From assembly GCA_963845755.1 (NCBI GenBank), contig CAWJTV010000001.1:245862-309861 (forward strand): 64,000 bases of DNA, in the 5' to 3' direction. The notes beneath the pieces were generated by a model that had not been told where the DNA came from, did no database searches, and saw nothing but the letters and a program-made list of their open reading frames with translations. Made by a program: the position numbers and the translations under genes. Shown in pieces: positions 30,218 to 48,168 of the stretch (positions within the stretch are counted from its first letter, which is position 1; every line of letters starts with the position of its first letter). This DNA is from an uncultured Planctomycetota bacterium (lineage in GTDB: Bacteria > Planctomycetota > Planctomycetia > Isosphaerales > Isosphaeraceae).

Positions 30218-30394
30218 ACCCGATTTCCGATTCTGGGCACCTGATGGACAGCCAAGAGGCACGAGCCGCGCCAGGTCGCGTCTTCAGAGTCGAAATGCGG
30301 CAGGACGGCTCTTTGAGCGGATGAGAGGACGTTCGAACGAACCAGACTTTGGTATGCTGGATCGAACAACCCAAAAGCCCGAGGAGCACATGCC

Positions 30395-30997
30395 ATGGCT
30401 TATGCCGATTTCGACTTGAGGACGGTCATGGAGAAATTCGAGCTGACGAGAAACGAGGACGTCGCCCTCTTTGAAAAGATCGAGCCGCTCGAACCCAGCG
30501 ATGTCCTGCGAGGTTGGCTCGACGAGTTCGCTCCCGTCGCGCTCGGGATCAACACGGAGCGGGCTCGTCGTGAGTACATCATCGCACCGATCATGGGCGA
30601 AGCAAAGCGACGCTCGCACAGGAAGATCAATGTCTTTCCCGGTGTGACCTTCAACGTTGATCAGGCGCGGGGACTGACCGGCGTTTGCGATTACTTGATC
30701 GCTCAGTCGCCGGAAGTCTTCTTCGTGGAGGCGCCCATCCTCGCGGTCGTCGAGGCCAAGAAGGAGGACATCCCGTCGGGACTCGGTCAATGTATCGCCG
30801 AGATGGTGGCGATCCAGATCTTCAACGAAAAGTACGGGAGGACCATACCAGTCGCTTACGGTTGCGTGACGAGCGGGAGCCACTGGCGATTCCTCAATTT
30901 GAAGGAAAAGGAACTTTTCATAGACCGCTGGGAGTATTATCTAGATGACGTGGCCAAGATCTTAGGGATCCTGGTCACCATCGCGCGCGGTGATTGA
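30395..30997 (+). CDS. Conserved hypothetical protein, possible PD-(D/E)XK nuclease-like fold
   Basis: GVCDYL...VVEAKK...GLGQCIAEM...YGCVTSG..WRF; RBS gaggag upstream. Confidence 0.6.
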   Translation: MAYADFDLRTVMEKFELTRNEDVALFEKIEPLEPSDVLRGWLDEFAPVALGINTERARREYIIAPIMGEAKRRSHRKINVFPGVTFNVDQARGLTGVCDYLIAQSPEVFFVEAPILAVVEAKKEDIPSGLGQCIAEMVAIQIFNEKYGRTIPVAYGCVTSGSHWRFLNLKEKELFIDRWEYYLDDVAKILGILVTIARGD

Positions 30998-31054
30998 GAA
31001 CAAGAACGAACCGGGTGATTCGGAACAGGACTCGAACCATGGATCGAATTCGTC

Positions 31055-32266
31055 ATGGAAACGATTGAAGCCAAGAACGTGATCGTCGGCGCCGGCGCGA
31101 TGGGTTCGGCGGCGGCGTACCATTTGGCGAAGCAGGGCGAGCCGGTCGTACTGATCGAGCAATTCGCCCTGGGTCACGACCGGGGCAGCTCGCACGGTGC
31201 GGCGCGAATCACTCGCCACTCGTACGCCGACGCGCGATACGCCCGGCTCATGCCGGCGGCGTTCCGCGCCTGGAGGGAGCTCGAAGCCGACGCGGGCGAG
31301 GCCCTTTATATTCGCACCGGCGGCGTCTCGTTCTCCCCGTCCGGCGTGGACTACGCGGCCCGGGTCGCGATGAGTCTCCGGGAGCTCGACGTGCCCCACT
31401 GGCGGACCTCCGGCCGGGAATGGAACCGGCGACGGCCGGCGTTCGGCCTGCCCGACGATTACGATGTGGTCTTCGAGCCCGACGCGGGGATGGTCGCAGC
31501 ATCGCGCGCCCTCGCGGTCCAGGTCGAGCTCGCCCGATCACTCGGTGGCGAACGGACCCGGGTCATCGAGCGGACTCCCGTGCGGCGGATCGACCTCGAT
31601 GGGCCCCAGCCGGTCGTGGTGACCGACCTGTCGCGGATCGTCGCCGAACGGCTGATCGTCTCGGCCGGCGCGTGGGTCAAGCGGCTACTGCCTGGCCTCC
31701 CGGTCCCGCTCACGTCCACTCGCCAGCAGGTCCTTTACTTCCGCCCCGGTGACCGAACACCCTTCCAGATCGGCCGCTTCCCGGTCTTCATCTTCATGCC
31801 GGCCGCTGATCAGGACGTGTACTACGGCATGCCCGAGTTTCTGGGCCTGGGCGTGAAGGTCGCGCGGCACGCCGGCCCCGAGATCGACCCCGATCTCGAC
31901 GATCGGACCGTCGGCGAGGAGTACCGATCGATCGTCCGGCACTTCCTCCACGGCCACATCCCCCTCCTGGCTGACGCGCCGATCGACCTCACCGAGGTCT
32001 GCCTGTATACCGTGGCCCCCGAGGAGCAATTTCAGCTCGACTTCCTGCCGGGCCGGTCGGATGTCATCGTGGCCAGCCCGTGCAGCGGGCATGGCTTCAA
32101 GTTCTCATGCCTGATCGGCCGCGTCCTGGCCGACCTGGCCATCACAGGGACGAGCGGGCTGGCGATGGAAACCTGGCGGATCCGCGAGGCGCCACCCCTC
32201 TCCCCCGCGCCCTGCCTTGAACGGCGAGGGCTCGGTACCGTAGAACGATGGACCCATGACCGATGA
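31055..32266 (+). CDS. solA: Monomeric sarcosine oxidase / N-methyl-L-tryptophan oxidase family flavoprotein
   Basis: VGAGAMGSAAAY, HDRGSSHGAARITR, VCLYT, CSGHGFKF. Confidence 0.8.
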   Translation: METIEAKNVIVGAGAMGSAAAYHLAKQGEPVVLIEQFALGHDRGSSHGAARITRHSYADARYARLMPAAFRAWRELEADAGEALYIRTGGVSFSPSGVDYAARVAMSLRELDVPHWRTSGREWNRRRPAFGLPDDYDVVFEPDAGMVAASRALAVQVELARSLGGERTRVIERTPVRRIDLDGPQPVVVTDLSRIVAERLIVSAGAWVKRLLPGLPVPLTSTRQQVLYFRPGDRTPFQIGRFPVFIFMPAADQDVYYGMPEFLGLGVKVARHAGPEIDPDLDDRTVGEEYRSIVRHFLHGHIPLLADAPIDLTEVCLYTVAPEEQFQLDFLPGRSDVIVASPCSGHGFKFSCLIGRVLADLAITGTSGLAMETWRIREAPPLSPAPCLERRGLGTVERWTHDR

Positions 32267-32278
32267 CGAGGAGGCCGG

Positions 32279-33520
32279 ATGCCCTTACGCCTGTTGCGAT
32301 TCGCGTTGAGCAAGACCTATCCCGAGCCGCGAATGTTCCGCCGGCCCGAGCGGCTCAAGGACCGTTACGACGCGGTGATCATCGGCGCTGGTGGGCACGG
32401 GCTGGCCGCGGCGTACCACCTGGCGGGCGACTACGGCATGACCGACGTCGCGGTGCTCGATCGGGGTTACATCGGCGGGGGCAACACCGGCCGGAACACG
32501 GCGATCGTCCGTTCCAACTACCTCACCGTCGAGGGCGTGAAATTCTACGACGAGAGCGTGCGGCTCTTCTCCAGGCTCTCGCAGGAGCTCGACTACAACC
32601 TGTTCTACTCGGAGCGTGGCCATTTCACGCTGGCCCACACGACGGCCACCCTGCGCACCATGCGGTGGCGGGCTGAAGTCAACAAGCACCTGGGCGTCAA
32701 CAGCTCCGTGATCACGCCCGAGGAGATCCACCGGCTCTGTCCGACGATCGACCTGTCCTGCGGCGGCCACGCCCCGATCGTGGGCGCGTTGTACCACCCG
32801 CCGGGCGCGGTCGTGCGGCACGATGCCGTCGCCTGGTCCTATGCGCGGGCCGCCGATCGGCTCGGTGTCGAGATCCACCAGAAGACCGCCGTCACCGGCA
32901 TCGACGTCCGGGATGGACAGGTCGTCGGCGTCCAGACCGACCGGGGTCCCATCAAGACCAGCCGGGTGCTCTCGGCCGTGGCCGGATACACCCCGCGAAT
33001 CACCCGCATGGTCGGCCTGCGCACGCCGCTGGTCATCCATCCCCTCCAGGCCTGCGTCACCGAGCCGCTCAAGCCCTGGCTCGACCAGATCGTCGTCTCC
33101 GCGAACCTGCACATTTACGTGAGCCAATCCGCTCGGGGTGAGCTGGTCATGGGGGCCGCGCTGGACCCCTACGAGCTCCACTCCGAGCGCTCGACGCTCG
33201 ACTTCGTCGAGGGCCTGGCCGATCACCTGCTCGACCTCTTCCCGTTCCTCTCGGATCTGAAGGTCAATCGCCAGTGGTCGGGCATGTCGGACATGACGCC
33301 CGACTTCTCGCCGATCCTGGGGACCACGCCGATCCGGGGCTTCTACCTCGACACCGGCTGGGGGACCTGGGGCTTCAAGGCCACCCCGGTCTGCGGCACC
33401 ACCATGGCCTACACCCTGGCCAAGGACCAGGACCATGAGTTGATCCGCCCGTTCAACCTCGCGCGGTTCGGGAATTACGAGCTCGTCGGCGAGAAGGGCG
33501 CCGCCTCGGTGGGACACTGA
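32279..33520 (+). CDS. mgdA: N-methylglutamate dehydrogenase subunit A (sarcosine oxidase beta-like)
   Basis: IIGAGGHGLA, GGGNTGRNTAIVRSNY, RHDAVAW, DMTPDFSPI, GWGTWGFKATP, EKGAASVGH; GTG start. Confidence 0.85.
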   Translation: MPLRLLRFALSKTYPEPRMFRRPERLKDRYDAVIIGAGGHGLAAAYHLAGDYGMTDVAVLDRGYIGGGNTGRNTAIVRSNYLTVEGVKFYDESVRLFSRLSQELDYNLFYSERGHFTLAHTTATLRTMRWRAEVNKHLGVNSSVITPEEIHRLCPTIDLSCGGHAPIVGALYHPPGAVVRHDAVAWSYARAADRLGVEIHQKTAVTGIDVRDGQVVGVQTDRGPIKTSRVLSAVAGYTPRITRMVGLRTPLVIHPLQACVTEPLKPWLDQIVVSANLHIYVSQSARGELVMGAALDPYELHSERSTLDFVEGLADHLLDLFPFLSDLKVNRQWSGMSDMTPDFSPILGTTPIRGFYLDTGWGTWGFKATPVCGTTMAYTLAKDQDHELIRPFNLARFGNYELVGEKGAASVGH

Positions 33521-33597
33521 ATCCGATAATCCTCACTCTTTCACCTCCAGAACCCCGGTGGTAAGATGCAACGGTATTCTTGAGAATGAGGTCTGGA

Positions 33598-33818
33598 ATG
33601 GTTACTAGGGGACAGGTCAAGAACGGCGTCGTCGTACTTGCCAACGGCGTGCGGCTGCCGGAAGGCCAAGAAGTGACCGTGTTGCGCCCGGTGTATGGCC
33701 AACCATCGCGCGGCCACATAGCATCCTGGACATCGCTCCGGTGAGCGTGGGCGCTGTTCTGCGCCCGTTGACAGCCGAGGACGACGTGCTCGGCGAAATG
33801 CTGGAAGGCCGGTCATGA
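33598..33818 (+). CDS. Putative antitoxin (frameshifted)
   Basis: MVTRGQVKNGVVVLANGVRLPEGQEVTV..., then ...HSILDIAPVSVG...EMLEGRS* in a shifted frame; ATGA overlap with the PIN gene. Confidence 0.6.
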
Positions 33819-34266
33819 TTCATGGACTGGACACCGGCTTCCTGGTCGCGGCCGAGGTGAGAGAGCACGCCGAACACGCCGACGCCCGGGACACGCTGGC
33901 CCGGTTGCTATCGGCGGGCGACCTCATCGCAATGGCCCCACAAGTCCTGGCCGAGTTCATCCATATCGTCACCGACCCCCGTCGTTTCGCACAGCCGCTC
34001 GACATGACGGCCGCCCGGCAGCTCGCCGAGCAATGGTGGACGGCACGTGAGGTCGTGCGCGTGTTCCCCGACAACGCCGCGACCCGGCAGTTTCTCGCCT
34101 GGTTGCAACAATTCTCCCTGGGCGCAAGCGGCTGCTGGACACGCTGCTGGCCGCGACCTACCGACAGGCTAGCATCCAATCCCTCCTCACCACCAATCCC
34201 TCCGACTTCACCGTGCTCGGTGCCTTTACCTGCATCACGCCGAAGACATCCGCCACGAATCCTTGA
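33815..34266 (+). CDS. PIN-domain (VapC-like) toxin (frameshift near 34123)
   Basis: GLDTGFLV, PQVLAEF, then LLDTLLAATY..LLTTNPSDF in the shifted frame, stop at 34264-66. Confidence 0.8.
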
Positions 34267-34386
34267 TCCTATGCGCGGGCCGCCGATCGGCTCGGTGTCG
34301 AGATCCACCAGAAGACCGCCGTTACCGGCATCGACGTCCGGGATGGACAGGTCGTCGGCATCCAGACCGACCGGCGTCCCATCAAG
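34267..34386 (+). repeat. Duplicated internal fragment of mgdA (copy of 32837-32956)
   Basis: 120 bp with 3 mismatches counted by eye. Confidence 0.95.
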
Positions 34387-34498
34387 GAGAGTGACAGTCG
34401 TTCAGCAGCGAACCGGGTGCGGCAGCAGGAACGCCGATCCAGCCGCCATAGGGCCGGAGGTAACCCCCGAGGGGGCGTCCATGTCGTCGGACCGAAGT
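34387..34498. repeat. Unnamed repeat, inverted partner of 43103-43214
   Basis: Shared gtgacagtcgttcagcagcgaac and tgtcgtcggaccgaag, colinear. Confidence 0.8.
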
Positions 34499-36974
34499 GC
34501 GCAATTGGATTGTACCCACGAGGCGGGAAGACTCGCGGGCCCCATGGCCCAGGTCGCAGGGCTCGGCTATGCTGGAGACTCCCGAAACCACCGCGAGATT
34601 CAGCGAGAGGAATGCCGTGCCATCCGCCAACCTGGACAAACTCAATCGGGAGCTGGATCGAATCGATCGACCCGGTACGTTCTGCGCCGCCGACAGCGTG
34701 CCCGCCGTCCTGCCCGGCCTGGAAGTCGAGGGCCTGGGGCCGGTCGGGCTGCCGCTCACCCCGAGGACAGCGAAAGAGCTGATCAAGCACTGTCATCAGG
34801 CCCCCTACGGCAAGGGCGAGGAGACCCTCGTCAACACGAAGGTCCGCCGCGTCTGGCGGATGGAGCCGGACCGCTTCAGCCTCAAGAACCCCGACTGGGA
34901 CCGGGTCGTCAAGGAGATCGTCGGCAAGGTCCAGGAAGAGCTCGGGCTGGAGAGCCAGAAGCTCGAGAGCCACCTGTACGACCTGTTGCTCTACGAGAAA
35001 GGGAGCTTCTTCCTGCCCCATCGCGACGGCGAGAAGCTCGACCGGATGGTCGCGACGCTCGTCGTGGTGTTGCCCTCGACGTTTGAGGGGGGCGAGTTGG
35101 TCGTCCGCCACGAGGGGCAGGAGCGGACGATCGACTTCGGCGGGCCAGCCGGCGACCCGTTCCACATCCACTACGCCGCCTTCTACGCCGACTGCGAACA
35201 CGAGGTCCGGCCGCTCGAGAAGGGGTATCGCCTCTGCCTGGTCTACAACCTCACGCTGGCGAAGTCGAAGAAGTCCCTGAGGGCGCCGCGCGACTCGGAG
35301 CACATCGCGGCGATCGTCCCGCTCATCCGGAAATGGGCGTCCGACGAGGAGTCAACCGAGAAGCTGGGCATCGCCCTGGACCATCAATACACCAAGGACG
35401 GCCTGACCTGGGACGCGCTCAAGGGCACGGACCGGGTCAAGGCGCGCGTCCTCGCCGAGGCGGCCCGACAGGCGGAGTGCCGGGCCTACCTGGCGCTCTT
35501 GACCCTCCATGACTCGGGCTCGGCGGAGTACGCCCGCGGGTCCGGCCGAGGATACGGCTATGGCCGGCGACGGAGCTGGTACGGCGACTACGATGACGAG
35601 GGCGACGCCAGCGACTACGAGATGGGGGAGATCTACGAGACCAGCCTCACCGCGGACCACTGGAGCGACGCCGAGGGCCACCGGCTGCCGATCGGCGAAC
35701 TGGACATCGAGGAGGACGAGCTCCTCGATCCGGAGGCGCTCCGGGAGGGGGAGCCTTCCGAGGAGGATTTCGAAGGCTTCACCGGCAACGCCGGGATGAC
35801 GCTGGACCGCTGGTATCGCCATGCCGCGGTCTTCCTCTGGCCCGCGAGCCGGCATTTCGAGGTCATCTGCGATCGCGACAGCCGCGCCGTCGTGCCGGAG
35901 CTGGTCCGGATGGTGGCGCGGTGGAAGAAGGGCCGCGGCGAGGAGGCGGCGGCCCTCGAGGCGCAGTGTCGCGAGCTCGCCGCCGCGATCGTCGCGAAAT
36001 GGCCCGCCGGCGCCCAGGGCCGCATCAGGCCCGACGGCAAGGATGACTGGGCGGGCGAGCTGCTCGCCGCGCTCGCCGCGCTCGACGACCCCGGCCGCAT
36101 CGGCGACTTCCTGGGAGGCGCCATGGCCAGGGACGCAACGGCCCAGCCCGGCAAGTCGATCGCCGCGATCGGCCAGAAGTACGGCTGGACGACCTTCCGG
36201 CCGCAGCTCGCCTCGGTGATGAAGGCGACTACGCCCGGGACGATGGAGCGGAACGTCCGGCTGCTGGAGTCGATCTGCACGGCCCGGCCGCGGAAGAAGG
36301 AGGGATGGAGCGAGCTGTGCGAGGCCCTCGCCTCGGAGCTCGTGTCGGCCATCGGGTCGATCGACCGGGCGCCCCCGTCCTCCGACGACTGGCGCTATCG
36401 GTCCGTCGATCGCGTGGAAGTCCTCGCGGGCCTGGCTCGCTCGCTGATCGCGACCGAGCAGGACAGGCTGCTGTCCCGATTCATCGACCATGCCCTCGCC
36501 TTGCCGCAGAAGTATCCGCTCACAGACGCCCACATCAAGGCGCTCGTGGGCCTCCGGACGTGGCTCTCGAAGAACGTCAAGAAGCCGTCGGCCGGCCTGG
36601 TGAAGTGGCTCGACGAGGTCCGGGACCAGCTCAGGTCGATCACCGCCGAGGTGCCGCAAGAACCGACCGACTTCCGCCGCGCGGCCCCGATCAAGTGCAC
36701 CTGCTCCGATTGCGCCGAGCTGAAGCGGTTCCTCGCAGACCCGGGCGAACGGGTGCTTCGCCTCAAGATGGGCAAGGAGCGCCGCCGGCACCTCCATTCC
36801 CAGATCGACGTCAACAAGATCGACCTGACCCACGTCACCGAGCGGATCGGCTCGCCCCAGACCCTCGTCTGCACCAAGACGGCGGCGTCCTACCAGGCCA
36901 GCCTGAAGAAGTACCGCGAGGATCGGGAACACCTGGCGACGATCGAGGCCATCCGGGCGAGCCTGCCCGGGTGA
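34497..36974 (+). CDS. Large 2OG-Fe(II) oxygenase-domain protein
   Basis: FFLPHRDGEK (HxD), FEGGELVV, DCEHEVRP, GYRLCLVYNL; long C-terminal region with CTCSDC; true start probably 34570-34620. Confidence 0.85.
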   Translation: MRNWIVPTRREDSRAPWPRSQGSAMLETPETTARFSERNAVPSANLDKLNRELDRIDRPGTFCAADSVPAVLPGLEVEGLGPVGLPLTPRTAKELIKHCHQAPYGKGEETLVNTKVRRVWRMEPDRFSLKNPDWDRVVKEIVGKVQEELGLESQKLESHLYDLLLYEKGSFFLPHRDGEKLDRMVATLVVVLPSTFEGGELVVRHEGQERTIDFGGPAGDPFHIHYAAFYADCEHEVRPLEKGYRLCLVYNLTLAKSKKSLRAPRDSEHIAAIVPLIRKWASDEESTEKLGIALDHQYTKDGLTWDALKGTDRVKARVLAEAARQAECRAYLALLTLHDSGSAEYARGSGRGYGYGRRRSWYGDYDDEGDASDYEMGEIYETSLTADHWSDAEGHRLPIGELDIEEDELLDPEALREGEPSEEDFEGFTGNAGMTLDRWYRHAAVFLWPASRHFEVICDRDSRAVVPELVRMVARWKKGRGEEAAALEAQCRELAAAIVAKWPAGAQGRIRPDGKDDWAGELLAALAALDDPGRIGDFLGGAMARDATAQPGKSIAAIGQKYGWTTFRPQLASVMKATTPGTMERNVRLLESICTARPRKKEGWSELCEALASELVSAIGSIDRAPPSSDDWRYRSVDRVEVLAGLARSLIATEQDRLLSRFIDHALALPQKYPLTDAHIKALVGLRTWLSKNVKKPSAGLVKWLDEVRDQLRSITAEVPQEPTDFRRAAPIKCTCSDCAELKRFLADPGERVLRLKMGKERRRHLHSQIDVNKIDLTHVTERIGSPQTLVCTKTAASYQASLKKYREDREHLATIEAIRASLPG

Positions 36975-37354
36975 GCTCGACCCCTACGAGCTCCACTCCG
37001 AGCGCCTCGACGCTCGACTTCGTCGAGGGCCTGGCCGATCACCTGCTCGACCTCTTCCCGTTCCTCTCGGATCTGAAGGTCAATCGCCAGTGGTCGGGAA
37101 TGTCGGACATGACGCCCGACTTCTCGCCGATCCTGGGGACCACGCCGATCCGGGGCTTCTACCTCGACACCGGCTGGGGGACCTGGGGCTTCAAGGCCAC
37201 CCCGGTCTGCGGCACCACCATGGCCTACACCCTGGCCAGGGACCAGGACCATGAGTTAATCCGCCCGTTCAACCTCCAGCGGTTCGCGAATTACGAGCTC
37301 GTCGGCGAGAAAGGCGCCGCCTCGGTGGGACACTGAATCCGCAAATCCTCACTC
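36975..37354 (+). pseudogene. Duplicated 3' end of mgdA plus downstream flank (copy of ~33160-33539)
   Basis: Near-identical DNA ending EKGAASVGH* and the following ...aatcctcactct; no start codon. Confidence 0.93.
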
Positions 37355-37534
37355 TGGAGAGGAGCGAGCCTGTGGCCGGTTTCTCAATCGGTATATAATT
37401 ATAGATGAATAATTACAATTGTATAGATTTACGTGTACAGGAGGCATCCTCTCGATCGCCGCGGCATCCCTTCCCGACCAACGACCTCCCAGGTAATATG
37501 GAGGAGTGGGACGGTGAGAAAGGAGAGAGGGGCC

Positions 37535-37840
37535 GTGGAAGTTTCTGTCATCATCGAGCCGATTACCGGCAGCGGGTATCGCGCGACCGGGGCCGGCGGG
37601 CTCTCGGTCGGCCTGACCGCTGACGGAGCGACGGCCGCAGAAGCCATCGACCGACTGGCCGACCAGGTCCGGCTCCGCGTGAACGCCGGGGCCAGATTGG
37701 CCGAGTTGAACGTCGCTGGCGGCATCGCACCCTGGAAGCAGGATGCCGGATACTTGCACGACGATCCCCTCTATGAACCCTGGCGCGCCGCGATGGAGGA
37801 ATACCGTCATCAACTCGACGAAGACCCCGAGGCGCTATGA
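37535..37840 (+). CDS. Putative antitoxin (HicB-like N-terminus)
   Basis: VSVIIEP..GSGYRA....LTADGATAAEAI pattern; GTG start with RBS; ATGA overlap with VapC. Confidence 0.65.
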   Translation: MEVSVIIEPITGSGYRATGAGGLSVGLTADGATAAEAIDRLADQVRLRVNAGARLAELNVAGGIAPWKQDAGYLHDDPLYEPWRAAMEEYRHQLDEDPEAL

Positions 37841-38256
37841 GCCTCTTCGTCCTCGATACCGACCACCTGACTCTCTATTACCACGGCGACCCGATCGTCG
37901 TTCAGAGGGTCAACTCGAGGCTACACACGGAGTTGGCGATCTCGGTCTTGACGGTCGATGAGCAACTCACGGGTTGGTACACGCTGATGCGGCAAGCCCG
38001 CCGTCCGGAAGAAGTCGCACGGGCCTACGTGCATCTCGGCGAAGCCGTCGTGCGTCTGGGCCGCTGGCGCATCCTGCCCTACACGGAAGCGGCCATCGCG
38101 CGGGTCGCTCAGCTCAAGGCCCTCCGGTTGAACGTTCGGCTCATGGACCTGCGGATCGCCGCCGTTGCGATGGAGAATCAAGCTGTGGTCGTCACCCGCA
38201 ACCGACGCGACTTCGGCCGTGTTCCCGGCCTGAGCGTCGAGGATTGGTCGGTTTGA
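37837..38256 (+). CDS. vapC: VapC-family PIN toxin
   Basis: FVLDTDHLT, TVDEQ, MDLRIAAVA, VVTRNRRDFGRVPGLSVEDW. Confidence 0.9.
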   Translation: MSLFVLDTDHLTLYYHGDPIVVQRVNSRLHTELAISVLTVDEQLTGWYTLMRQARRPEEVARAYVHLGEAVVRLGRWRILPYTEAAIARVAQLKALRLNVRLMDLRIAAVAMENQAVVVTRNRRDFGRVPGLSVEDWSV

Positions 38257-38498
38257 GCCCCCCGTCCGGGGATTCCGGCGGGGCCCGCCACGGGCCGCCG
38301 TCGCTTCAGGCGGAGTCCCAGCCCGCCGACGCAAACCATCGCGGGCCAGGTCGGGTGTCGCTGCCGAATCTCTCGGAGAGGCCACGCCGAGGAACGGCCA
38401 GCCGGTCCGACGCCACCGAAGGCCATTGAGTCGCGGTGAATTCGGTCGATCCGACCGAAGCTCGCAAGGCGACCGTCCGACGGTTCGGTCGATCCGAA

Positions 38499-38572
38499 TA
38501 TGTGAGCCAATCCGCTCGGGGTGAGCTGGTCATGGGGGCCGCGCTGGACCCCTACGTGCTCCACTCCGAGCG
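38499..38572 (+). repeat. Duplicated internal fragment of mgdA (copy of 33116-33189)
   Basis: 74 bp with 2 mismatches counted by eye. Confidence 0.93.
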
Positions 38573-38603
38573 GGGCGTGAAAAGGGGACGGGGGCGTGAA
38601 AAG

Positions 38604-38885
38604 ACAGCCATGTGGGAATTGGCGTGATGCCGATTTGGGACCTATGTACGGACGATCCCTGTCCCCGCCGAACCGGCGGGTTTTACAGATGTCGTTTGAT
38701 GGCCAATCCCGACCAGGGGCCACCTCGGTCTCGTCAGGGATCACGTCTCGCCATACTGGTTTATCAGGGGAGTGACCCCACACAGCCTTATCCGACGTTG
38801 GTGATCCGAGACAGAGCGCCACGCTTTTCCACGGCTTTGCGCCTTGGGGACAGATTCGACGTTGTTCGGCCCCTGGTCCGGATGG
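38604..38885 (-). ncRNA. Predicted bridge/seek RNA region of the IS110 element
   Basis: About 280-nt non-coding segment downstream of the recombinase with short matches to target and donor junctions on either side of small hairpins; RNA boundaries unknown. Confidence 0.65.
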
Positions 38886-40460
38886 TCACTCTGTGGGATC
38901 AGCCTCCCCTGACTCCGGTGATCTTACCAGGTTCCCCTCCAGTTTGGCCAAGATGGCGGGGAGAATCGTGTCTAGCTGGCGCGGTCCCGTTCCCCGCGAT
39001 TTCGGGACCCGAGCCAGCTCCTCCGCCACAGCGGCCGCTTCCTCACGATGCGCCGTGTGCGGGAGTTGGGCCACTGCGGCGTCGAGGTTTCGCGAGAGCT
39101 GATCAGGTGGAATGATATGCTCAAGAGAAAACCTGATCAGTTTATCGAGGATGGGATCCCGCTGCTGAGCGCAGGGGTGTTGGAAGGTCATCCGACCGGC
39201 TACCATCTGGTAGGCGATCCGGCAGAACCGACCGGCGACCTGGACACGGACGCTACGGGCGTCCTTGCCCCTGAGCCGCCATCCCGCGGCCAGGACCGCG
39301 AAGTGATCATTGCATTTGATCAAGTTATCTGCAATCGTGAGGATGGCGGATCGCAGGTCGCGATTGGCGTGTCGGACCAGCGCGCCGTCGCGACGATCGA
39401 CCTGGTCGCTCTGGTACCGCGAGGGGAACAACCCGGCGCGGCCCGTAATCGCTCGGGCCTTGGTGTAGCGCTCGATCGGCCCCATCTCGCCGGCGAACTC
39501 GGCGGCCGAGACCACGTTGATCCCGACGATGCCCAGCAGGAGCAGGTAGGGCGTCCCGGCCAAGAGCCCGGCCAGGTCACCCTCGACCGCCTGGATGGCT
39601 TGAGCCTTGGCGACCTGGTCGGCGTCGAGCTCCAGGAAGATGCGGTGATGGAGCGACGCCGGTTCCTCGGCCGACGGTGCCGACCGGGCCCAAGCGACGA
39701 TCTTTTCCAGGGTGGACCGATACACTCGGAGGCCGGCCTGTCGAACCTGTTGGCTCAAGCCGGCCAGGCCGATCTGGGCGATCGCCGCGGCCGAGCCGAG
39801 GTCCCTGGCCACCCAGAGGATGGCCGGAGAACCGAAGAGATCGCCGACGCACTTCGAGTATCCTGGCATGAACGATTGAAGATGCTCGAGCATCTGCTGT
39901 TGGAGGACGACTCGCTTTTGCACCGAGGTGCGGCGGTGCCTGGCCAGCAGTTGGAGTCGGGCATAGACCGGGTCGGGTTCGGGCTCCAGCAGGCCGAAGC
40001 CGTTGACGGCGGCGCGGTGGATGGCGGAGAGGTCGGTGTCGTCGGTCTTGTTGCCGGGGTCGGCGGGGAGTCGATACTGCTTGGTGGTGTAAGGATGAAC
40101 GATGCGGACCTCGAACCCCGCCTTGCGGAAGCTGCGCTGGACCGGGCCGTGATAGCGACCGGTGCGCTCGACGACCACGATCACCTCCCGGATGCCGTGC
40201 CGGGCCATGGCCGCGCGAACCGACGTCACGGCGGTCTCGAAGTCGGATCGGTTGTGTTCGACGGTGGTCGGCTCGAGCAGGACTCGGCCGTAGAAGTCGG
40301 CGAACATCATCCGGGAGCGTGCCTTGGCGCAATCGACGCACACCAAGCCGAAGTGCTCCGGTCCGACCGCTTGGACGCGCGGGTGAATGACCCCCCGAGG
40401 CTTATGAAGGGCATGCGGCTGCGACGGGCGACGGTTCTTCGACGGGGACTTGGTAGCCAT
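38886..40460 (-). CDS. IS110 DEDD recombinase/transposase
   Basis: CVDCAK, VERTGRYH, KTDDTD, GINVVSAAEFAGEMG, AGLFPSRYQSD. Confidence 0.92.
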   Translation of the reverse strand: MATKSPSKNRRPSQPHALHKPRGVIHPRVQAVGPEHFGLVCVDCAKARSRMMFADFYGRVLLEPTTVEHNRSDFETAVTSVRAAMARHGIREVIVVVERTGRYHGPVQRSFRKAGFEVRIVHPYTTKQYRLPADPGNKTDDTDLSAIHRAAVNGFGLLEPEPDPVYARLQLLARHRRTSVQKRVVLQQQMLEHLQSFMPGYSKCVGDLFGSPAILWVARDLGSAAAIAQIGLAGLSQQVRQAGLRVYRSTLEKIVAWARSAPSAEEPASLHHRIFLELDADQVAKAQAIQAVEGDLAGLLAGTPYLLLLGIVGINVVSAAEFAGEMGPIERYTKARAITGRAGLFPSRYQSDQVDRRDGALVRHANRDLRSAILTIADNLIKCNDHFAVLAAGWRLRGKDARSVRVQVAGRFCRIAYQMVAGRMTFQHPCAQQRDPILDKLIRFSLEHIIPPDQLSRNLDAAVAQLPHTAHREEAAAVAEELARVPKSRGTGPRQLDTILPAILAKLEGNLVRSPESGEADPTE

Positions 40461-40845
40461 GGAACAGGACCTCCGAATCGAGTTGAGAAGAGACCCAACT
40501 CCCATTCTGGAAGTCTGATCGGGCGTTCAGTAGAAAAGATCCTTGACCCCCCCAGGCCCCCCTGTTGTTGCTGGTCAAGAATCTTTAGTACCTCACTTCG
40601 CCACATACCAGGGGACGGAACGAATTATTGACGTCCATTCCGTCCCCTTTTCATCTGCTCCGTTCTGTCAACTTTTCCTCTGCATCCCCTTATCCTTTGC
40701 CTTGGCTGAGAAGACCGACCAGAACCAGCACCAGGACGGCGCGGTCGATGGCCGCATCCGCAAGGACTGACTACTCACGGGACAGCCGCAAGAGTAGAAT
40801 CATGTCGGGGTTGTACCTGCTCATCGAGGAGCGTCCGCCTGCAGC

Positions 40846-41319
40846 ATGGATATCGTCGGCAAGAGGGGAGAGGCGCTCTTCGGCGCGATCATCACCCGGT
40901 GGTGCGGGGGACAGCAGTGGTTCGATCGGCGCTTCCTGGGCGAGAAGGCCGAAGCGCTCGATTTCGAGGTGACGCTCCTCGGATCGTCCGTCTTTCAGTC
41001 GAATTTCTTCGTACAGGTGAAGGCGACGGCGAAGGCTAAGCGGTATGCGGGCACAGGAATGGGTCGTAAACTGCTCGTCCGGCTGACGGCCGCCGATGCC
41101 AAAAAGCTCGGCAGCATGAAAGTGCCGGCGTATGTCGTCGGAATCGACGTGCTCTCCGGGGTCGCATATATCCAGCACGTCCCGGCGGGAGCCAGGAAGG
41201 GGTTCGTGGGAATCTCTACCCGCCGCTCACTGAACTGCCGGGCCATCAGGAGGATTTGGAATGACGTCGAAGACTTCTGGAAGTCGCGGCCAGTAGGCAT
41301 GACGAAGTCCAGCCTTTGA
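40846..41319 (+). CDS. DUF4365-like PD-(D/E)XK nuclease-fold protein
   Basis: GKRGE..F, LDFEV, FFVQVKAT, PAYVVGID; RBS gaggag upstream. Confidence 0.7.
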   Translation: MDIVGKRGEALFGAIITRWCGGQQWFDRRFLGEKAEALDFEVTLLGSSVFQSNFFVQVKATAKAKRYAGTGMGRKLLVRLTAADAKKLGSMKVPAYVVGIDVLSGVAYIQHVPAGARKGFVGISTRRSLNCRAIRRIWNDVEDFWKSRPVGMTKSSL

Positions 41320-41328
41320 GGAGGGCAC

Positions 41329-41853
41329 ATGTCTCCAGCAAACCAGATGGTGGGTCACCGCTCAGAACTCCTCGCCAGGGTTGCCCTGACGCGGCGATTG
41401 AACGTCAACGTGTTCAACATGGATATGGGCGGCGAGATGGGAATCGACTTGCTCTGCTCGATCCGCGACCCGACCCTCCCCGGATTCCTCCCGTTCGGCG
41501 TGCTCGTATGGGGCACGTCTAACCCCCTGGACACGTCGGAGGATTTGGCGAAGCACGTCCGCGGCCGCAGGAAGAAGCTCGACAAGCGGACACGATACTT
41601 CATCCCGGTCATCGTCTTGCTGTTTTCCATGCACAACGACAGGGAGTTCTACGCCTGGCTCGTCGAGCCATCTGAAGACTCGACCCATCTTGTGGATGTG
41701 GCCGATCTGGATTTCAAGCCGTTTGATACCAGGCAACTAGACAGGGTCATTCGGCGCATCACGAATTGGTATAAGTTCCTTGCCGCAGACATCCGGCCTG
41801 AGACCACGGAAATCAATTCGTCTCGGTTTCCGAATGACGAGCGGGATGACTGA
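41329..41853 (+). CDS. Divergent DUF4365-like protein
   Basis: GHRSELLA, GIDLL, FGVLVWGT, IPVIVLLF...FYAWL; 9 bp after the previous gene with RBS gaggagg. Confidence 0.55.
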   Translation: MSPANQMVGHRSELLARVALTRRLNVNVFNMDMGGEMGIDLLCSIRDPTLPGFLPFGVLVWGTSNPLDTSEDLAKHVRGRRKKLDKRTRYFIPVIVLLFSMHNDREFYAWLVEPSEDSTHLVDVADLDFKPFDTRQLDRVIRRITNWYKFLAADIRPETTEINSSRFPNDERDD

Positions 41854-41911
41854 TACAGTCCCCATGTGATCGAGGTTCCCTGCCCCTTCACGCGCAAGGT
41901 CAGGTATTGCT

Positions 41912-42160
41912 TGCTTCGGTCCGACGACACCGAAGTCGATCGACCTGAGGTGGCTTCGATCGATCCGGTCGAAGCCGGTTAAACCCGGCGACGGCATCAC
42001 CTCCGAGGAATGCGGGTTTGGGGTCCGCGACGCGGCTCAGTTCGGCCCCGCCTTGGTCCCGGTCCTGGGTGAGGATTCTGGGCGAGGCAGAACCTCGGCT
42101 TGGCCGGACCACTCCTGCCTTCGGGCGGGACGTGACAGGCGGTTGAATCTAGCTCCGCTC
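41912..42160. repeat. Unnamed repeat; distal part is an inverted degenerate copy of ~42910-43110
   Basis: cttcggtccgacgacaccga core shared with 43104; colinear blocks shared with 42910-43110 in reverse. Confidence 0.65.
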
Positions 42161-42231
42161 CCCCGCTTCCGCTCCATCCCCCGCTTCCGCTCCATCCCCG
42201 TTTCCGGTCCTCGTCCCCGTTTCCGCTCCTC
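42153..42231. repeat. ~18-bp pyrimidine-rich tandem repeat (about 4 copies)
   Basis: cccccgcttccgctccat x2 followed by ccccgtttccggtcctcgt variants. Confidence 0.75.
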
Positions 42232-42247
42232 GTGTGCCAATAAAACC

Positions 42248-42395
42248 GGGATCGTCCCAAACGCCCATTTCCCAGCTTGACACTTCGGCGCCGAAGTGTC
42301 GCCAAACGAGCGAAACTGGCGGGTTTCAGCCCGGCCGTGTCTGCCCCAAGTGTCAAGTTGCCGAGGGACGAATTCAGCCGGTTTGGGACGATCCC
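42248..42395. repeat. Nested palindromic (MITE/REP-like) element
   Basis: gggatcgtcccaaac / gtttgggacgatccc outer arms; cttgacactt / aagtgtcaag inner arms; gacacttcggcgccgaagtgtc palindrome. Confidence 0.75.
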
Positions 42396-42457
42396 ATAAA
42401 ACCCCCGTGATGTTCACGAGGTTTTTGCCCTTATCGTTCCGTCCGTGAGTCACCGTG

Positions 42458-42718
42458 TTACTTGCGCTTCCCGAGGAATAGCGCATCGACCAAGGTCAAC
42501 TCGACAAAGTCCTCAAGAGTGTACGACACTCCCTGCGTGTCCATGATCGTGGTGCCATGGCCTCGTGTAGATCGGCTAGTCGCCAGCCTATCGACGATGC
42601 TCACGATCTCGTTGCGGAGCGTATCTTTTGATACATCAGGGTTCTCCTTGTAGAAGTCCTTGAGCGCCAGTACAACGGCGTCCCGGCTCACACCTTCGAG
42701 TTGCACATCTTTACTCAT
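42458..42718 (-). CDS. Small hypothetical protein
   Basis: 86-aa ORF, RBS gaggag, AT-rich upstream region. Confidence 0.6.
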   Translation of the reverse strand: MSKDVQLEGVSRDAVVLALKDFYKENPDVSKDTLRNEIVSIVDRLATSRSTRGHGTTIMDTQGVSYTLEDFVELTLVDALFLGKRK

Positions 42719-42909
42719 TGGTCTGCTATCTCCTCATGATAGAGTCTCTAATCACTTGGCATCGAAGTCGTCGATGCCACTAATAGTGTATTTTTGTATA
42801 GATTGCGGAGTCAATACCGGATTCGAGTTTTCGTCCAATTGCAACGTAAAACTTGATAACACGCATCATATTAATGTGGCGACCGGAATCTCTTGAGGGG
42901 GGACGGCAA

Positions 42910-43214
42910 CGGAGACGCGGCTGGATTTGACCGCCTGCCACAGCCCGCTCGACGACAGCGGTGGTCGGGCCGGGCCAGGGTCCTGCTTGGCACGGAATCC
43001 AGATCCAGAGCCCGGACCAAGGCCGGTAGGACCGACCTGAGTCGCGCTACGCACCGTTGTCCCGCGTTCGGCAGGGCTGATTTCGTCGTGTGGTATTAAC
43101 CTGCTTCGGTCCGACGACACCGACGCGCACACCGAGGTTGCCTCTGGGCCCATGTCGGGTGGATCGGCTTTCATCCCGCCGCACCTTGTTCGCTGCTGAA
43201 CGACTGTCACCCTC
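42910..43214. repeat. Composite copy of the unnamed repeat family
   Basis: Left part matches 41975-42160 inverted; right part matches 34387-34498 inverted. Confidence 0.7.
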
Positions 43215-43429
43215 GGTCCGCAGACGCGTACCTTGAACCGTCCACTGCTCGATCTCTGGTTGCCTGGGCGCGGTTCTTGCCCCATCTGAGACCACGGGTG
43301 ATAATGCCCTCTGTCGATGATCGTTCCGGTGCCGCTCGCGGAGGGGAATCGCGATCTACCGACGGACCGGTCCTCACCGCGTACTGCCGCCCGCGTACTC
43401 TCAAGCGTGTTCCCACCGCGGGGGTTCTG

Positions 43430-43699
43430 ATGAAGCTCTTGCGCTGCCCTCTCAACGGACCGCGGCCGCTCCAGGAATTCGTCTTCGGGGGCGAGGTCCG
43501 CACCATGCCCGACGCCGCGACGGCAACCGACGCCGAATGGGCCGATTATGTGTTCAACCGACAGGGCGAGCCAGGTGTGCGCCGGGAGTGGTGGTATCAC
43601 CTGCCCAGTGGAACGTGGTTCATCGCCGAGCGCGACAACCTCAAGGATGAAATCCTCCGGACCTACCTCTACGAAGATCCGACTTCGGCAAACCCGTAG
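43430..43699 (+). CDS. mgdB: N-methylglutamate dehydrogenase subunit B (sarcosine oxidase delta-like)
   Basis: MKLLRCPLNGPRPLQEFVFGGE..MPD, WADYVFNR, EWWYH.PSGTWFIAERD. Confidence 0.88.
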   Translation: MKLLRCPLNGPRPLQEFVFGGEVRTMPDAATATDAEWADYVFNRQGEPGVRREWWYHLPSGTWFIAERDNLKDEILRTYLYEDPTSANP

Positions 43700-44064
43700 G
43701 TCGGGCTCTCAGCCTGTCGTCTCGTAGGTCGGGCTTCCCAGCCCAACCGGATTCTGAGCGTCTGTTCCGAAGGCGAACGGTGAATGAGGCGACCTGACCT
43801 GGAGAGTACGACCGTGGTTTTCCCGTTACGCCAACGGCGTTGCACAGCACAGCCCAGGGTCGCCGCAGGCGCACCCTGGGACACGACCGCCCGCACTCCC
43901 GCGCACCCCAACGGGGTTTCTCACGCCGCATTCCCAGGGTGCGCTGCGCGACCCTGGGCTGCGCTGTGTAACGCCGTTGGCGTACGAACCATCGGTGGTG
44001 GCGCGGTTGGTTCCCAGGGTGCGCTGCGCGACCCTGGGCTGGGTTGTGTAACGCCGTTGGCGTA
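43696..44064. repeat. REP cluster between mgdB and mgdC
   Basis: Two gtaggtcgggct units; tacgccaacggcgtt...cccagggt.g..gc.gcgcaccctggg unit with two inverted copies (43932-43984, 44011-44064). Confidence 0.85.
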
Positions 44065-44156
44065 GGGGGTTGCTCCTCTGACGCGGCGCTCTTCGAACAG
44101 ACTGTGAGTGCTGTCTGGCAGGCGGGAAAGCCCCATCTCTATCAGGACGATGCACC

Positions 44157-47096: not shown

Positions 47097-47827
47097 TGAC
47101 CCCAATGCCAGAACCTCCCGCCCGCTCGAGCCCGGTCCACGACCTCCTCGACCATCTTCACCCCCGATGGGGCGCTGTCAACGGCATGCCCGTGGCGCTG
47201 GGCTTCGGAGGCCGGACCATCGCGCAGGAGCAGGGCGTGGCACGGACCCTGGGTCTCTGCGACGTCAGCGCCCTGCCCCGCCTGGTGATCAAGGGCCCGG
47301 GTGCCGAGTCCTTTCTCAGGGCGCACGAGGTCGCGCACGCCCTTCCCGCGGACGTCTGCCGAGTCCTGCCTTGGAGGTCCGGGGGGGTGATTGCCCGCAC
47401 CGGCCGTGCCGAGTTCTTTCTCGAAGACGTGCCTCGTGACGGCGGGCCGCCGGACGTCGTCGAGCGGCTCACCGAGTCCTTGCTGAGGTCTCCACCGCCT
47501 GGTGTCTATCCGGCGCTGCGGCAGGACGCATCGTTCCTACTCAGCGGCGATCGTGCCCCAGCCCTGTTCGCCCAGACGTGCGGCTACGACTTTCGCCAGG
47601 TCGATGCCAGGCCGAATCCCGGTCCCGACCCGACGATGCTGCTGGTCATGACTCGTGTCGCGGGAGTGTCAACCTGGGTCCTGCATCGTGCCATCAACGA
47701 GCGCAGTGCTTACCAACTCTGGGTGGATGGGACCTATGGCCCGTACCTCTGGGAGATCCTGCTGAAGCTCGCGCGTGAGCTCGGCGGCGACGCCGTGGGC
47801 CTGTCGGTGTTCTTCCCCGAAGTGTAG
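47096..47827 (+). CDS. mgdD: N-methylglutamate dehydrogenase subunit D (sarcosine oxidase gamma-like)
   Basis: LCDVSALPRLVIKGPGA, RQDASFLLSG, QTCGYDF, YGPYLWEIL...ELGG; TGATG coupling to mgdC. Confidence 0.82.
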   Translation: MTPMPEPPARSSPVHDLLDHLHPRWGAVNGMPVALGFGGRTIAQEQGVARTLGLCDVSALPRLVIKGPGAESFLRAHEVAHALPADVCRVLPWRSGGVIARTGRAEFFLEDVPRDGGPPDVVERLTESLLRSPPPGVYPALRQDASFLLSGDRAPALFAQTCGYDFRQVDARPNPGPDPTMLLVMTRVAGVSTWVLHRAINERSAYQLWVDGTYGPYLWEILLKLARELGGDAVGLSVFFPEV

Positions 47828-48168
47828 GTGGGCCTGGTCGAAACGCGCGCGAAGTTGTCGATGGGATCGGCAACGCGTGCCATCGTGCTACGTCGAGCTT
47901 TTCGGAGGATCGGAGGTGGAACCGGGGGACTTCATTGCCCCGGCACCAACGTTCCGCATCCCTCACAATACTAGGTGGGCACTGATCGTCGGTGACCCGG
48001 CGATCCTCGTTTCGGCCTTGACCGCTTCCGCGTTTGCACGACAATCCCGGCTGAAGGACCGTGAAGACCGCGGCCGGTCTCGAACGAAGCGGTCCTTCCG
48101 CACAGGAGCGTGCGCCAGCGGCCGGTTGCTCGGGAAGAATCGGCGGCCCCGATCGGGACCAATCAAGG

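Follow-up and report, generated by a model that had tools for sequence, protein, structure and literature searches.

The locus and its genes

The window, meaning the whole 64,000-nucleotide stretch of DNA that was analysed, belongs to a source genome (G000) of 14,266,732 bases in 49 contigs with 3.3% contamination. Coordinates are window positions unless a contig is named. The locus contains the following features.

31055–32266, + strand: N-methyl-L-tryptophan oxidase-like FAD oxidase (NCBIfam NF008425, 303 bits)
32279–33520, + strand: intact mgdA, soxB-family beta subunit of 413 residues, the source of the three fragments (Pfam DAO, 223.8 bits; TIGR01373, 466 bits, below cut-off)
33442–33540, + strand: end of the resident mgdA, bearing five private alleles, at 33442, 33471, 33496, 33526 and 33527 (alignment of all copies)
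33541–34263, + strand: cargo block 1, the VapBC-like pair TA1, with antitoxin (33598–33818) and PIN toxin (33815–34266), one frameshift in each gene
34264–34386, + strand: mgdA fragment 1, equal to mgdA 32834–32956 (123 nt, 97%, E 3.6e-52)
34387–34497, + strand: copy of a dispersed repeat of ~130 nt, its 5′ end ~18 nt short at the fragment 1 junction (repeat searches)
34497–36974, + strand: cargo block 2, a 2OG-Fe(II) oxygenase-domain protein, ORF of 825 residues (Pfam PF13640)
36975–37388, + strand: mgdA fragment 2, equal to mgdA 33160–33540 plus 34 nt of the native mgdA–mgdB spacer (repeat and spacer alignment)
37389–38498, + strand: cargo block 3, the TA2 pair of antitoxin (37433–37840) and VapC (37837–38256), preceded by AT-rich DNA, common to the relative G001
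38499–38572, + strand: mgdA fragment 3, equal to mgdA 33116–33189 (74 nt, 97%, E 4.3e-28)
38573–43103, no single strand: cargo block 4, starting in a hairpin with IS110, with ORFs at 40846–41319 (weak DUF4365), 41329–41853 and 42458–42718 (− strand) (domain and repeat searches)
38598–40616, within the hairpin: IS110 copy, transposase at 38886–40505 on the − strand, with copies of 99–100% identity elsewhere
43104–43232, − strand: the dispersed ~130-nt repeat a second time, inverted and directly next to the region upstream of mgdB (repeat searches)
43233–43699, + strand: distal part of the native spacer, then mgdB (soxD family, 43430–43699; Pfam SoxD, 91.3 bits)
44157–47096, + strand: mgdC (soxA-family alpha subunit) pseudogene with two frameshifts relative to the G015 frame

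The stop codon of mgdA (33518–33520) and the start of mgdB (43430) are separated by the 9.9 kb first reported. The two genes are normally adjacent, as the original prediction assumed: they lie 2 nt apart in the relative G015, and at metagenomic soxB loci the distance from soxB to the start of a soxD homologue is at most 60 nt in 57 of 73 cases and at most 372 nt in 70. The name mgdA is not settled between N-methylglutamate dehydrogenase (mgdABCD) and sarcosine oxidase (soxBDAG) on these matches; the best NCBIfam name is ‘sarcosine oxidase subunit beta family’, and the soxB, soxD and soxA family models match the subunits below their curated cut-offs (466 versus 529.45 bits for mgdA; 58.7 versus 116.5). 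To call the site a metabolic operon needs qualification, since the operon is already broken. mgdC, a single 994-residue frame in G015, carries a 1-nt deletion at 45455, present in both G000 and G001, and one inserted nucleotide at 46480 that only G000 has.

The cargo had been described as defence-like cassettes. This holds only in part: there are two VapBC pairs, one of them dead, next to the oxygenase (with paralogues elsewhere), the IS110 copy and unknown ORFs. Both TA1 genes are frameshifted in the G000 assembly; environmental contigs carry an extra G after 33683 (X2 and X3) and after 34119 (X3). The oxygenase has a paralogue on contig C38 of the same genome (71–76%) and homologues in other genera at 69–75% DNA identity. 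The right end of block 3 (38497/8) coincides with a breakpoint seen in an X2 contig and in contig C33 of G001.

Repeated pieces of mgdA and their junctions

Three near-identical pieces of mgdA were predicted between mgdA and mgdB, and a repeat search and a whole-genome DNA search both recover them, all on the + strand and at 97% identity. Fragment 2 matches at 36975–37355 with mgdA 33160–33539 (97%, E 1.3e-181, one 1-nt indel). In all 14,266,732 bases mgdA has only four matches, the gene itself and the three fragments, which excludes chance. Two of the pieces were thought to begin directly after a stop codon. One does, with the oxygenase TGA at 36972–36974 and the repeat from 36975; in fragment 1 the PIN TGA (34264–34266) lies inside the alignment, opposite TGG of mgdA (32834–32836). 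Fragment 3 is separated from the PIN2 stop by 242 nt. The 3′ end of mgdA and its copy are each followed by a different antitoxin–PIN pair, TA1 (33598–34266) and TA2 (37433–38256), in agreement with the earlier description.

The right joins fall at three positions of mgdA (32834, 33116/7 and 33160), and the left joins at 33540 for TA1 and after the spacer motif TCAATGG for TA2. Shared bases at the TA2–fragment 3 and oxygenase–fragment 2 joins number 0–2 nt, judged against environmental contigs that continue differently. After every fragment stands what should have come after the intact gene one step earlier. In a screen of read runs no more than 0.22 of the sampled words occurred in any one run, so the junctions found in G000 only (TA1–fragment 1, fragment 1–130-nt repeat, oxygenase–fragment 2 and fragment 3–block 4) rest on one assembly.

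The same site in relatives and environmental contigs

Cargo between mgdA and mgdB varies between genomes, as had been proposed: the site is empty in G015 and holds a different array at the same junction in G001. The order in G001 is mgdA, spacer, TA2, a 456-bp repeat of the mgdA end and spacer (97.1%), then unrelated cargo split by three further mgdB copies that are 93.6–94.8% alike. Within the arrays the two genomes overlap in the TA2 block and its mgdA scar only. The claim of iterative insertion is supported. The junction from TA2 to mgdA 33116/7 is identical in both. The G001 counterpart of fragment 3 (copy 2) extends to the mgdA 3′ end and then into native spacer, and the succession of fragment 2, spacer and TA2 in G000 is the same as that after the intact mgdA in G001. 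In a wetland contig (X1, record 3) the mgdA end and 29 nt of spacer are followed by 87 nt and then by the 130-nt repeat and the oxygenase start, a layout that would be the predicted intermediate of a displacement series. An intact gene is followed by same-strand orphan 3′ pieces with their former modules, as fragment 2–spacer–TA2, copy 2 of G001 and the X1 contig show.

An assembly artefact, in which versions of the locus from different strains were strung together, is highly improbable. The contig number and contamination level of G000 would allow it, as would the end of the G001 contig inside its array and the co-occurrence of related strains (92–99% identity) in wetland, peat and rhizosphere metagenomes. 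However, the TA2–mgdA junction and the 456-bp repeat recur in an independent genome that is ~84% identical elsewhere, the window contig is continuous through both syntenic flanks, and the same layout occurs at further loci (see below). Since the junctions do not lie at shared sequence, an assembly graph would have had no reason to jump there.

Searches for integron, recombinase and transposon

The original prediction saw no integrase. It missed an IS110-family DEDD transposase (38886–40505, − strand). Pfam searches of the 12 ORFs that the window has from 33598 to 43699, and of 13 cargo ORFs of G001, find no tyrosine or serine recombinase. Among 96 ORFs at 16 other loci, DDE, DEDD and Y1 transposases are found and no tyrosine or serine recombinase. 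The IS110 element is a plain IS that adjoins no mgdA junction; it is an ordinary later insertion, irrelevant to the scars. A composite or unit transposon was also considered and rejected, as the 111-nt inverted pair belongs to a dispersed family (10 matches) and the interval has a single IS110. The family consensus runs ~18 nt beyond the copy at 34387, so this copy is cut short there and is not a transposon end.

An integron of the genome itself, on contig C3, served as positive control. A true IntI is encoded at C3:161245–162186 (TIGR02249, 484.9 bits versus a 265-bit cut-off) with at least eight attC sites, and G000 has no further TIGR02249 match above cut-off. An attC covariance model built from eight of these sites scores 60–86 bits on them; with filters off, its best match in 31000–45000 reaches 8.2 bits (E 0.32). 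Nowhere in the window does the pattern CTAAC-N35-65-GTTAG occur, and no attC-like site was found in the mgdA–mgdB interval, the G001 array or the hemL and metF loci.

These results bear on site-specific integration, by which the blocks would be remnants of integrative elements or cassettes, each with a replacement mgdA 3′ end, inserted by a recombinase encoded elsewhere (for example the contig C3 IntI). Displaced ends of this kind are indeed left by elements that target a gene's 3′ end and bring a substitute for it, and the genome does encode a true IntI with attC sites. Against this stand the lack of attC-like sites in the regions searched, the lack of tyrosine or serine recombinases in every scanned cargo ORF, and the differing repeat boundaries: the same short core at every boundary, as in an integrative island, was not found, and both right and left joins vary. 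We consider site-specific integration very unlikely, and its integron version is largely refuted. The view that the outcome resembles an integron while the mechanism is another one holds, in that homology to the host gene explains the scars better than an integron or a transposon.

Alleles of the mgdA copies

The resident mgdA tip differs from fragment 2 and both G001 copies at five of five sites in 33442–33540 and at 0 such sites in 33160–33441. All five alleles lie within 86 nt adjoining TA1, with none in the preceding 282 nt. Three are coding and leave the amino acid unchanged on codon reading; the other two lie past the stop codon. The tip on the TA1 side has a separate ancestry, and we read it as having probably come in together with TA1, a signal of five sites. 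Imported sequence would then run continuously from the anchor into the foreign block, as in homology-facilitated illegitimate recombination (HFIR), in this small sample at the mgdA tip and TA1.

On a larger scale, the tract 31750–47868 is 96–99% identical to G001, whereas identity is ~84% in the flanks that keep synteny and likewise at hemL and metF. By sliding identity its left edge, at ~31750, is inside the FAD oxidase gene. The locus appears to be under ongoing exchange, and what moves between lineages would be the whole, already broken operon.

Local duplication would mean that replication slippage or unequal crossing-over copied the 3′ part of mgdA in place several times and that insertions of unrelated genes between the copies came later. 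Other alleles of the copies speak for it. Fragment 2 and the resident mgdA have three alleles in common that are confined to G000 copies (33257, 33317 and 33403), which in situ duplication would equally yield; the copies are all in one orientation, inside a 6-kb stretch, and fragment 1 needs a deletion under any model. However, the cargo blocks sit exactly at the repeat boundaries, unlike independent later insertions, and the private tip alleles beside TA1 are unexpected for a copy made in place. The mgdB copies of G001 differ by 5–6%, whereas the operons of G000 and G001 are only 3% apart, and an environmental contig has the oxygenase directly after the mgdA end. Local duplication is unlikely.

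Template switching of the FoSTeS/MMBIR type would produce the same layout with the insert exactly at the junction and little or no microhomology: a fork collapsed at the mgdA end would have copied sequence elsewhere and returned upstream of its departure point, giving a duplication and a templated insert each time. The oxygenase does have a paralogue in the same genome, on C38. However, G000 has no near-identical donor of TA1, TA2 or the oxygenase, its matches being the locus itself and distant paralogues, and the imported tip and the G001 exchange tract point to DNA of other cells. We hold this explanation to be quite unlikely.

The same layout at other genes

The order of intact gene, cargo and 3′ fragment is found at 13 other loci of G000, including hemL and metF. 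Among 109 low-copy local direct-repeat pairs, 14 have the repeat at the 3′ end of an intact gene, with cargo and then the fragment downstream, and four have the reverse order, a count in which ORF calls come from a crude GC3 heuristic and two of the four reverse cases form one tandem paralogue cluster. The hemL repeat is 519 bp long (96.9%) and encloses 14 kb of cargo, which includes a PIN gene and an Hma defence system. metF has a 660-bp repeat, and its displaced fragment adjoins queG, which in G015 stands directly beside metF. Agreement with outgroups lies with the full gene rather than the fragment, at 14 versus 4 sites for hemL and 25 versus 10 for metF, so an imported tip is seen for mgdA alone. 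mgdA had been proposed as the recombination anchor. Homology to a host gene does explain the scars best, but mgdA is not special, since the repeated scars in G001 are mgdB copies and the layout recurs at the other loci.

A model of repeated 3′-end displacement

We think it probable, though by no means assured, that the array was built by repeated 3′-end displacement, a recombinase-independent and homology-anchored form of insertion-duplication. The recombination mechanism, the order of events and the uptake of foreign DNA that we infer would be as follows. Incoming DNA of a related strain would consist of an mgdA end and the donor's own downstream cargo. Its homologous side would pair and cross over inside the resident mgdA, and its far, non-homologous end would join illegitimately to the resident mgdA further upstream, either directly by HFIR or after the fragment closed into a circle and integrated by a single crossover. 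The product would be an intact, partly imported mgdA, new cargo, and then the old 3′ end with all that came after it. A first round would have brought TA2 (right join at mgdA 33116/7), a second the oxygenase block (join at 33160) and a third TA1 (join at 32834). Afterwards a deletion would have run from 32957 into the 130-nt repeat; then the rest of fragment 3 would have been replaced by block 4, and IS110 would later have hopped into the hairpin. As to natural transformation as a putative route of uptake, G000 has a ComEC homologue, but such homologues are common. The excess of TA pairs may arise because a cell that loses the insert, through recombination of the repeats on either side, is penalised by them.

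More tentatively, and with less confidence than doubt, we suggest that homology-anchored 3′-end displacement is a general, recombinase-free way of acquiring accessory and defence genes and stacking them behind ordinary conserved genes in this giant-genome planctomycete lineage, with the old ends as an ordered record of acquisition and TA pairs kept through the penalty on loss. The usual explanation of a gene-capture site is an integrase, an integron or a transposon. In this array each old gene end would mark one acquisition and its order, and no dedicated enzyme is seen. If one process lies behind the layout at hemL, metF and about a dozen other genes, the intact gene, cargo and same-strand 3′ fragment would form a searchable signature of recombinase-free island growth, a means of dating and ordering acquisitions, and a testable reason for the build-up of TA pairs in inserts. 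If true generally, a process of polymorphic-toxin loci would be a genome-wide route of island growth that may contribute to genome expansion.

Comparison with known systems

Sedentary chromosomal integrons often hold TA cassettes, and their arrays, like that of mgdA, stack small blocks including TA pairs in one orientation at one site. The mgdA array differs in having no attC, attI or adjacent IntI, its punctuation being host-gene fragments of 74–380 nt. Tyrosine integrases put genomic islands into the 3′ end of tRNA and protein genes, including by tandem accretion. There too an element-borne end restores the target gene and the old end becomes the far-side direct repeat; the mgdA array, in contrast, shows no integrase, has variable boundaries and repeats far longer than att cores usually are, and some of its blocks measure only 0.7–1.1 kb.

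HFIR, summarised in PMC5361080 and PMC3240628, and insertion-duplication by single crossover, with merodiploids formed by transformation reported in PMC3784515, have one homologous anchor, one illegitimate join and no need of a dedicated recombinase, and they can leave the insert between two direct copies of the anchor, as at mgdA. Those cases are laboratory events in competent species, usually with deletion of recipient DNA, whereas the mgdA case is read from natural scars, with at least three rounds at one site in a planctomycete-like genome.

The closest likeness is to the rhs, CDI and T6SS loci. Jackson et al. 2009 reportedly dealt with rhs and is among the works that Kirchberger et al. 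2017 cite. The sections of Kirchberger et al. 2017 (PMC5361080) on 3′-end displacement arrays describe, as at mgdA, an intact gene followed by same-strand orphan 3′ ends, each with its former downstream module; new modules enter beside the conserved part and push older ones downstream, the arrays vary by strain, and there is no integrase, HFIR being the mechanism proposed there. In those loci each tip has its own toxin domain and a matching immunity gene, so that displacement alters function and is considered to be under selection. Divergent toxin-domain tips paired with immunity genes were not found at mgdA: its tips are pieces of a soxB-family enzyme gene with 97% identity, its cargo has no relation to mgdA, and the layout also occurs at the housekeeping genes hemL and metF. 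The mgdA array resembles the 3′-end displacement already known from rhs, CDI and T6SS loci, with an ordinary gene as its site.

Structure of the mgdA-mgdB interval

The mgdA gene (32279-33520) codes for a soxB-family FAD oxidase (Pfam DAO, 223.8 bits; TIGR01373, 466 bits, under the cut-off). The soxD-family gene mgdB (43430-43699) lies 9.9 kb 3' of it and is followed by mgdC, a soxA-family gene split over three frames, and then by a gamma-like ORF. Three pieces of mgdA divide the interval into cargo blocks. Repeat and whole-genome DNA searches find all three on the same strand as mgdA, as originally predicted, with E-values from 4e-28 to 1e-181, and the whole-genome search finds no further mgdA DNA in the genome under study (G000; 14.27 Mb in 49 contigs), of which the window covers C1:245862-309861.

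Features of the interval between mgdA and mgdB
33541-34263: cargo block TA1, a VapBC-like pair with one frameshift in each gene
34264-34386, same strand as mgdA: fragment 1, copy of mgdA 32834-32956, ~97% identity
34387-36974: oxygenase cargo block, a truncated dispersed ~130-nt repeat and an 825-aa ORF with a 2OG-Fe(II) oxygenase domain
34387-34497 (+): copy of the dispersed ~130-nt repeat
36975-37355, same strand as mgdA: fragment 2, copy of mgdA 33160-33539, ~97% identity
37389-38498: cargo block TA2, VapBC-like, VapC intact
38499-38572, same strand as mgdA: fragment 3, copy of mgdA 33116-33189, ~97% identity
38573-43103: cargo block 4, 4.5 kb, beginning in an IS110-bearing hairpin, with three small ORFs that lack a clear family assignment
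41915-41945: partial copy of the dispersed repeat
43104-43232 (-): copy of the dispersed repeat

The junctions show microhomology of 0-2 nt, an uninformative amount. The four junctions particular to G000, at 34263/4, 34386/7, 36974/5 and 38572/3, are known from one assembly only; a search for reads of the source sample found none, with at most 0.22 of the words present in any of 20 listed runs. Contigs from four runs are short pieces of relatives that cannot confirm these junctions, and gaps in their coverage carry no meaning.

Several features lie beside the array. The gap between mgdB and mgdC holds three to four REP-like palindromic units (43822-44069), and many similar units are present in a more distant genome (G023). 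A low-GC stretch directly 5' of the oxidase genes carries a 200-aa ORF (30395-30997) that matches the PADLOC model of a CRISPR-associated PD-(D/E)xK nuclease at 2e-48 and has no match in Pfam or NCBIfam. Further upstream, ORFs 28344-29264 and 29027-30217 overlap in different frames, the second covering the C-terminal half of a sulfatase model only; together, 28344-30217 may be one more frameshifted gene.

The interval in relatives and metagenomes

Among the matches listed when 30 other genomes were searched at the DNA level, mgdA-like sequence comes from G001, G015 and G019 (the last at 64%); 13 weaker matches lie beyond these. The mgdA-mgdB gap in G015 is 2 nt, and its alpha subunit is intact (994 aa). 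A metagenome scan with MgdA kept 80 loci at 59-82% amino-acid identity and gave 73 soxB loci that extend 400 nt or more downstream. In 57 of these 73, a soxD homologue begins no more than 60 nt from soxB, and in 70 the distance is at most 372 nt; in two others it is 1158 and 6265 nt away, and in one it was not found. Adjacency of soxB and soxD is therefore the rule, in line with the expectation that mgdA and mgdB are normally neighbors. None of the 73 loci, the 1.2-kb and 6.3-kb interruptions included, contains an extra mgdA-like piece. The scan yielded no further variants of the array because none of the 80 loci is close.

G001, which carries the same genus label as G000, has mgdA, a spacer of ~54 nt, TA2, a 456-bp second copy of the mgdA end and spacer (97.1%) and then the native spacer. 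Its array continues with cargo unlike that of G000, divided by three more complete mgdB copies that are mutually only 93.6-94.8% alike; these scars are mgdB copies, not mgdA pieces. The true mgdBCD operon of G001 is on a separate contig, which starts with a group II intron-type reverse transcriptase (L011 137-1453, on G001:C10), close to an assembly break. The site is thus empty in one relative, G015, and otherwise filled in another, G001, and the variable cargo that the original prediction looked for in relatives is present.

Probable order of acquisitions

The 3' neighbor of each fragment is what earlier followed the intact gene, one step back. For fragment 3 this is seen in its G001 counterpart, copy 2, which leads into the native spacer. 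Fragment 3 is this same copy shortened at 33189, and the TA2-to-mgdA junction (33116/7) is identical in both genomes. After fragment 2 come 34 nt of spacer, then TA2, the same succession as at the intact mgdA of G001. One wetland contig of 504 nt (X1 record 3) contains, in this order, the mgdA end with 29 nt of spacer, 87 other letters, the 130-nt repeat (34387 onward) and the beginning of the oxygenase; this layout is the state predicted just before the arrival of TA1. Measured against its family consensus, the repeat copy at 34387 is missing ~18 nt at the start. A single deletion, with one end at mgdA 32957 and the other inside the 130-nt repeat, would explain both this shortened 5' end and the internal position of fragment 1.

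Origin of the mgdA 3' tip

Alignment of the 3' region shows five sites in 33442-33527 at which the resident mgdA differs from fragment 2 and both G001 copies, and no such private site in the preceding 282 nt. The three coding-region differences leave the amino acid unchanged by reading of the codons, and the remaining two are 3' of the stop codon. G015 is unlike the resident mgdA at all three coding-region sites; at two it has the base found in the other copies. This clustering means that the TA1-side tip and the rest of mgdA differ in origin, and the alignment places the putative crossover between 33403 and 33442. Position 33118 is T in fragment 3, G001 copy 2 and G015, and C in both full genes. 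The shared T agrees with both displaced copies representing one and the same old end.

Between G000 and G001, identity is 96-99% over the tract 31750-47868, against 84-86% in the syntenic flanks and at hemL and metF. These identities indicate that the whole sox/mgd operon tract was replaced recently by exchange between lineages. In mgdC, a 1-nt deletion at 45455 is common to both genomes, so the exchanged operon was already damaged; G000 has in addition a 1-nt insertion at 46480.

Integron and mobile-element candidates

G000 does encode a complete integron elsewhere. Its integrase (G000:C3:161245-162186) scores 484.9 bits with TIGR02249 (cut-off 265), and at least eight attC sites of ~65 nt (CTAAC...GTTAG) divide small opposite-strand ORFs (locus L116, 7713-15811). 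A covariance model built from these attC sites gives 60-86 bits on the sites themselves. With filters off, its best attC-like hit in 31000-45000 is 8.2 bits (E 0.32), and nothing exceeds 8.8 bits in the G001 array or the hemL and metF loci. No cargo ORF scanned has a tyrosine or serine recombinase domain. The joins occur at differing mgdA positions. An integron is thereby rejected for the mgdA array, there being no attC-like site and no recombinase domain in the scanned cargo ORFs.

The IS110 copy in block 4 (38598-40616) had escaped the original prediction, which saw no integrase and missed its DEDD transposase. The element sits at none of the mgdA junctions. Its flanks are its hairpin target, GAAAAGGGGACGG / CCGTCCCCTTTTC (38573-38597 and 40617-40660), and copies of 99-100% identity on contigs C34 and C12 are flanked differently. 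These features rule it out as the agent of the mgdA scars; its insertion is an ordinary later hop. At G000:C12:184453-188500, two tandem IS110 copies 13 nt apart lie next to a GGGGAC motif like that of the hairpin, the pair being flanked by a 153-nt gene-end repeat.

The 111-nt inverted pair is likewise rejected as transposon ends: it belongs to the dispersed repeat, of which the 34387 copy is a truncated example. This ~130-nt repeat has 10 matches in G000, recurs in eight more genomes of the family (G001, G002, G006, G008, G011, G014, G015 and G017; 72-88% identity) and stands 5' of three of the four mgdB copies in G001. Folding gives no signal of a structured RNA (z-scores -0.2 to +1.3, weak alifold consensus), and Rfam has no match in 30000-46000 at E<=0.1, the repeat included.

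The same layout at other loci

Self-comparison of G000 yields 109 low-copy direct-repeat pairs (70-1500 nt, 0.5-25 kb apart). By a crude GC3-based ORF rule, 14 of these show an intact gene repeated at its 3' end, then cargo, then the fragment downstream; four show the opposite order, two of them in one tandem paralogue cluster. Both copies are intact in three pairs, and 88 are outside all three classes. The forward layout thus recurs at 13 loci besides mgdA, 14 cases in all against 4 reverse.

At hemL, a 519-bp copy (96.9%) is 14 kb downstream. The cargo (L016, G000:C29:192001-210000) includes an Hma helicase-methylase-ATPase defence system (HmaA 492 bits, HmaC 246 bits, HmaB called as a 294-aa N-terminal piece only), a PIN gene and a REP-associated tyrosine transposase. 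The metF locus has a 660-bp copy 8.8 kb downstream, adjoining queG, which in G015 is the direct neighbor of metF. Among the cargo of other loci are Uma2 nucleases, kinase and ECF-sigma pairs, a SocA/Panacea antitoxin and several IS types. The recurrence of the layout at hemL, metF and other loci means that mgdA is no special anchor. Outgroup polarization at hemL and metF puts the derived alleles in the fragments, not in the full genes, as would be expected of decaying leftovers. It detects no imported tip at these two loci; so far one is seen at mgdA only.

Mechanism and comparison with known systems

The best account of the array is repeated displacement of the 3' end through homology-anchored insertion. 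A homologous crossover would occur inside the conserved gene, and the far end would be joined illegitimately upstream of the crossover, either directly or via a circularized fragment. The incoming DNA may have been taken up from outside, and the toxin-antitoxin pairs may have a stabilizing role. G000 encodes a ComEC homologue. Ku (PF02735) has no match in G000, which at a rated completeness of 87.9% is no proof of absence. Of the earlier reading, the iterative, homology-anchored and non-integron character stands; an anchor specific to mgdA does not, given the repeated layout at hemL and metF, and a known analogue exists. The same mechanism has been put forward for the orphan arrays of T6SS, rhs and CDI loci (PMC5361080). 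Unlike in those arrays, the displaced ends at mgdA add nothing new in function, and the cargo has no relation to the gene.
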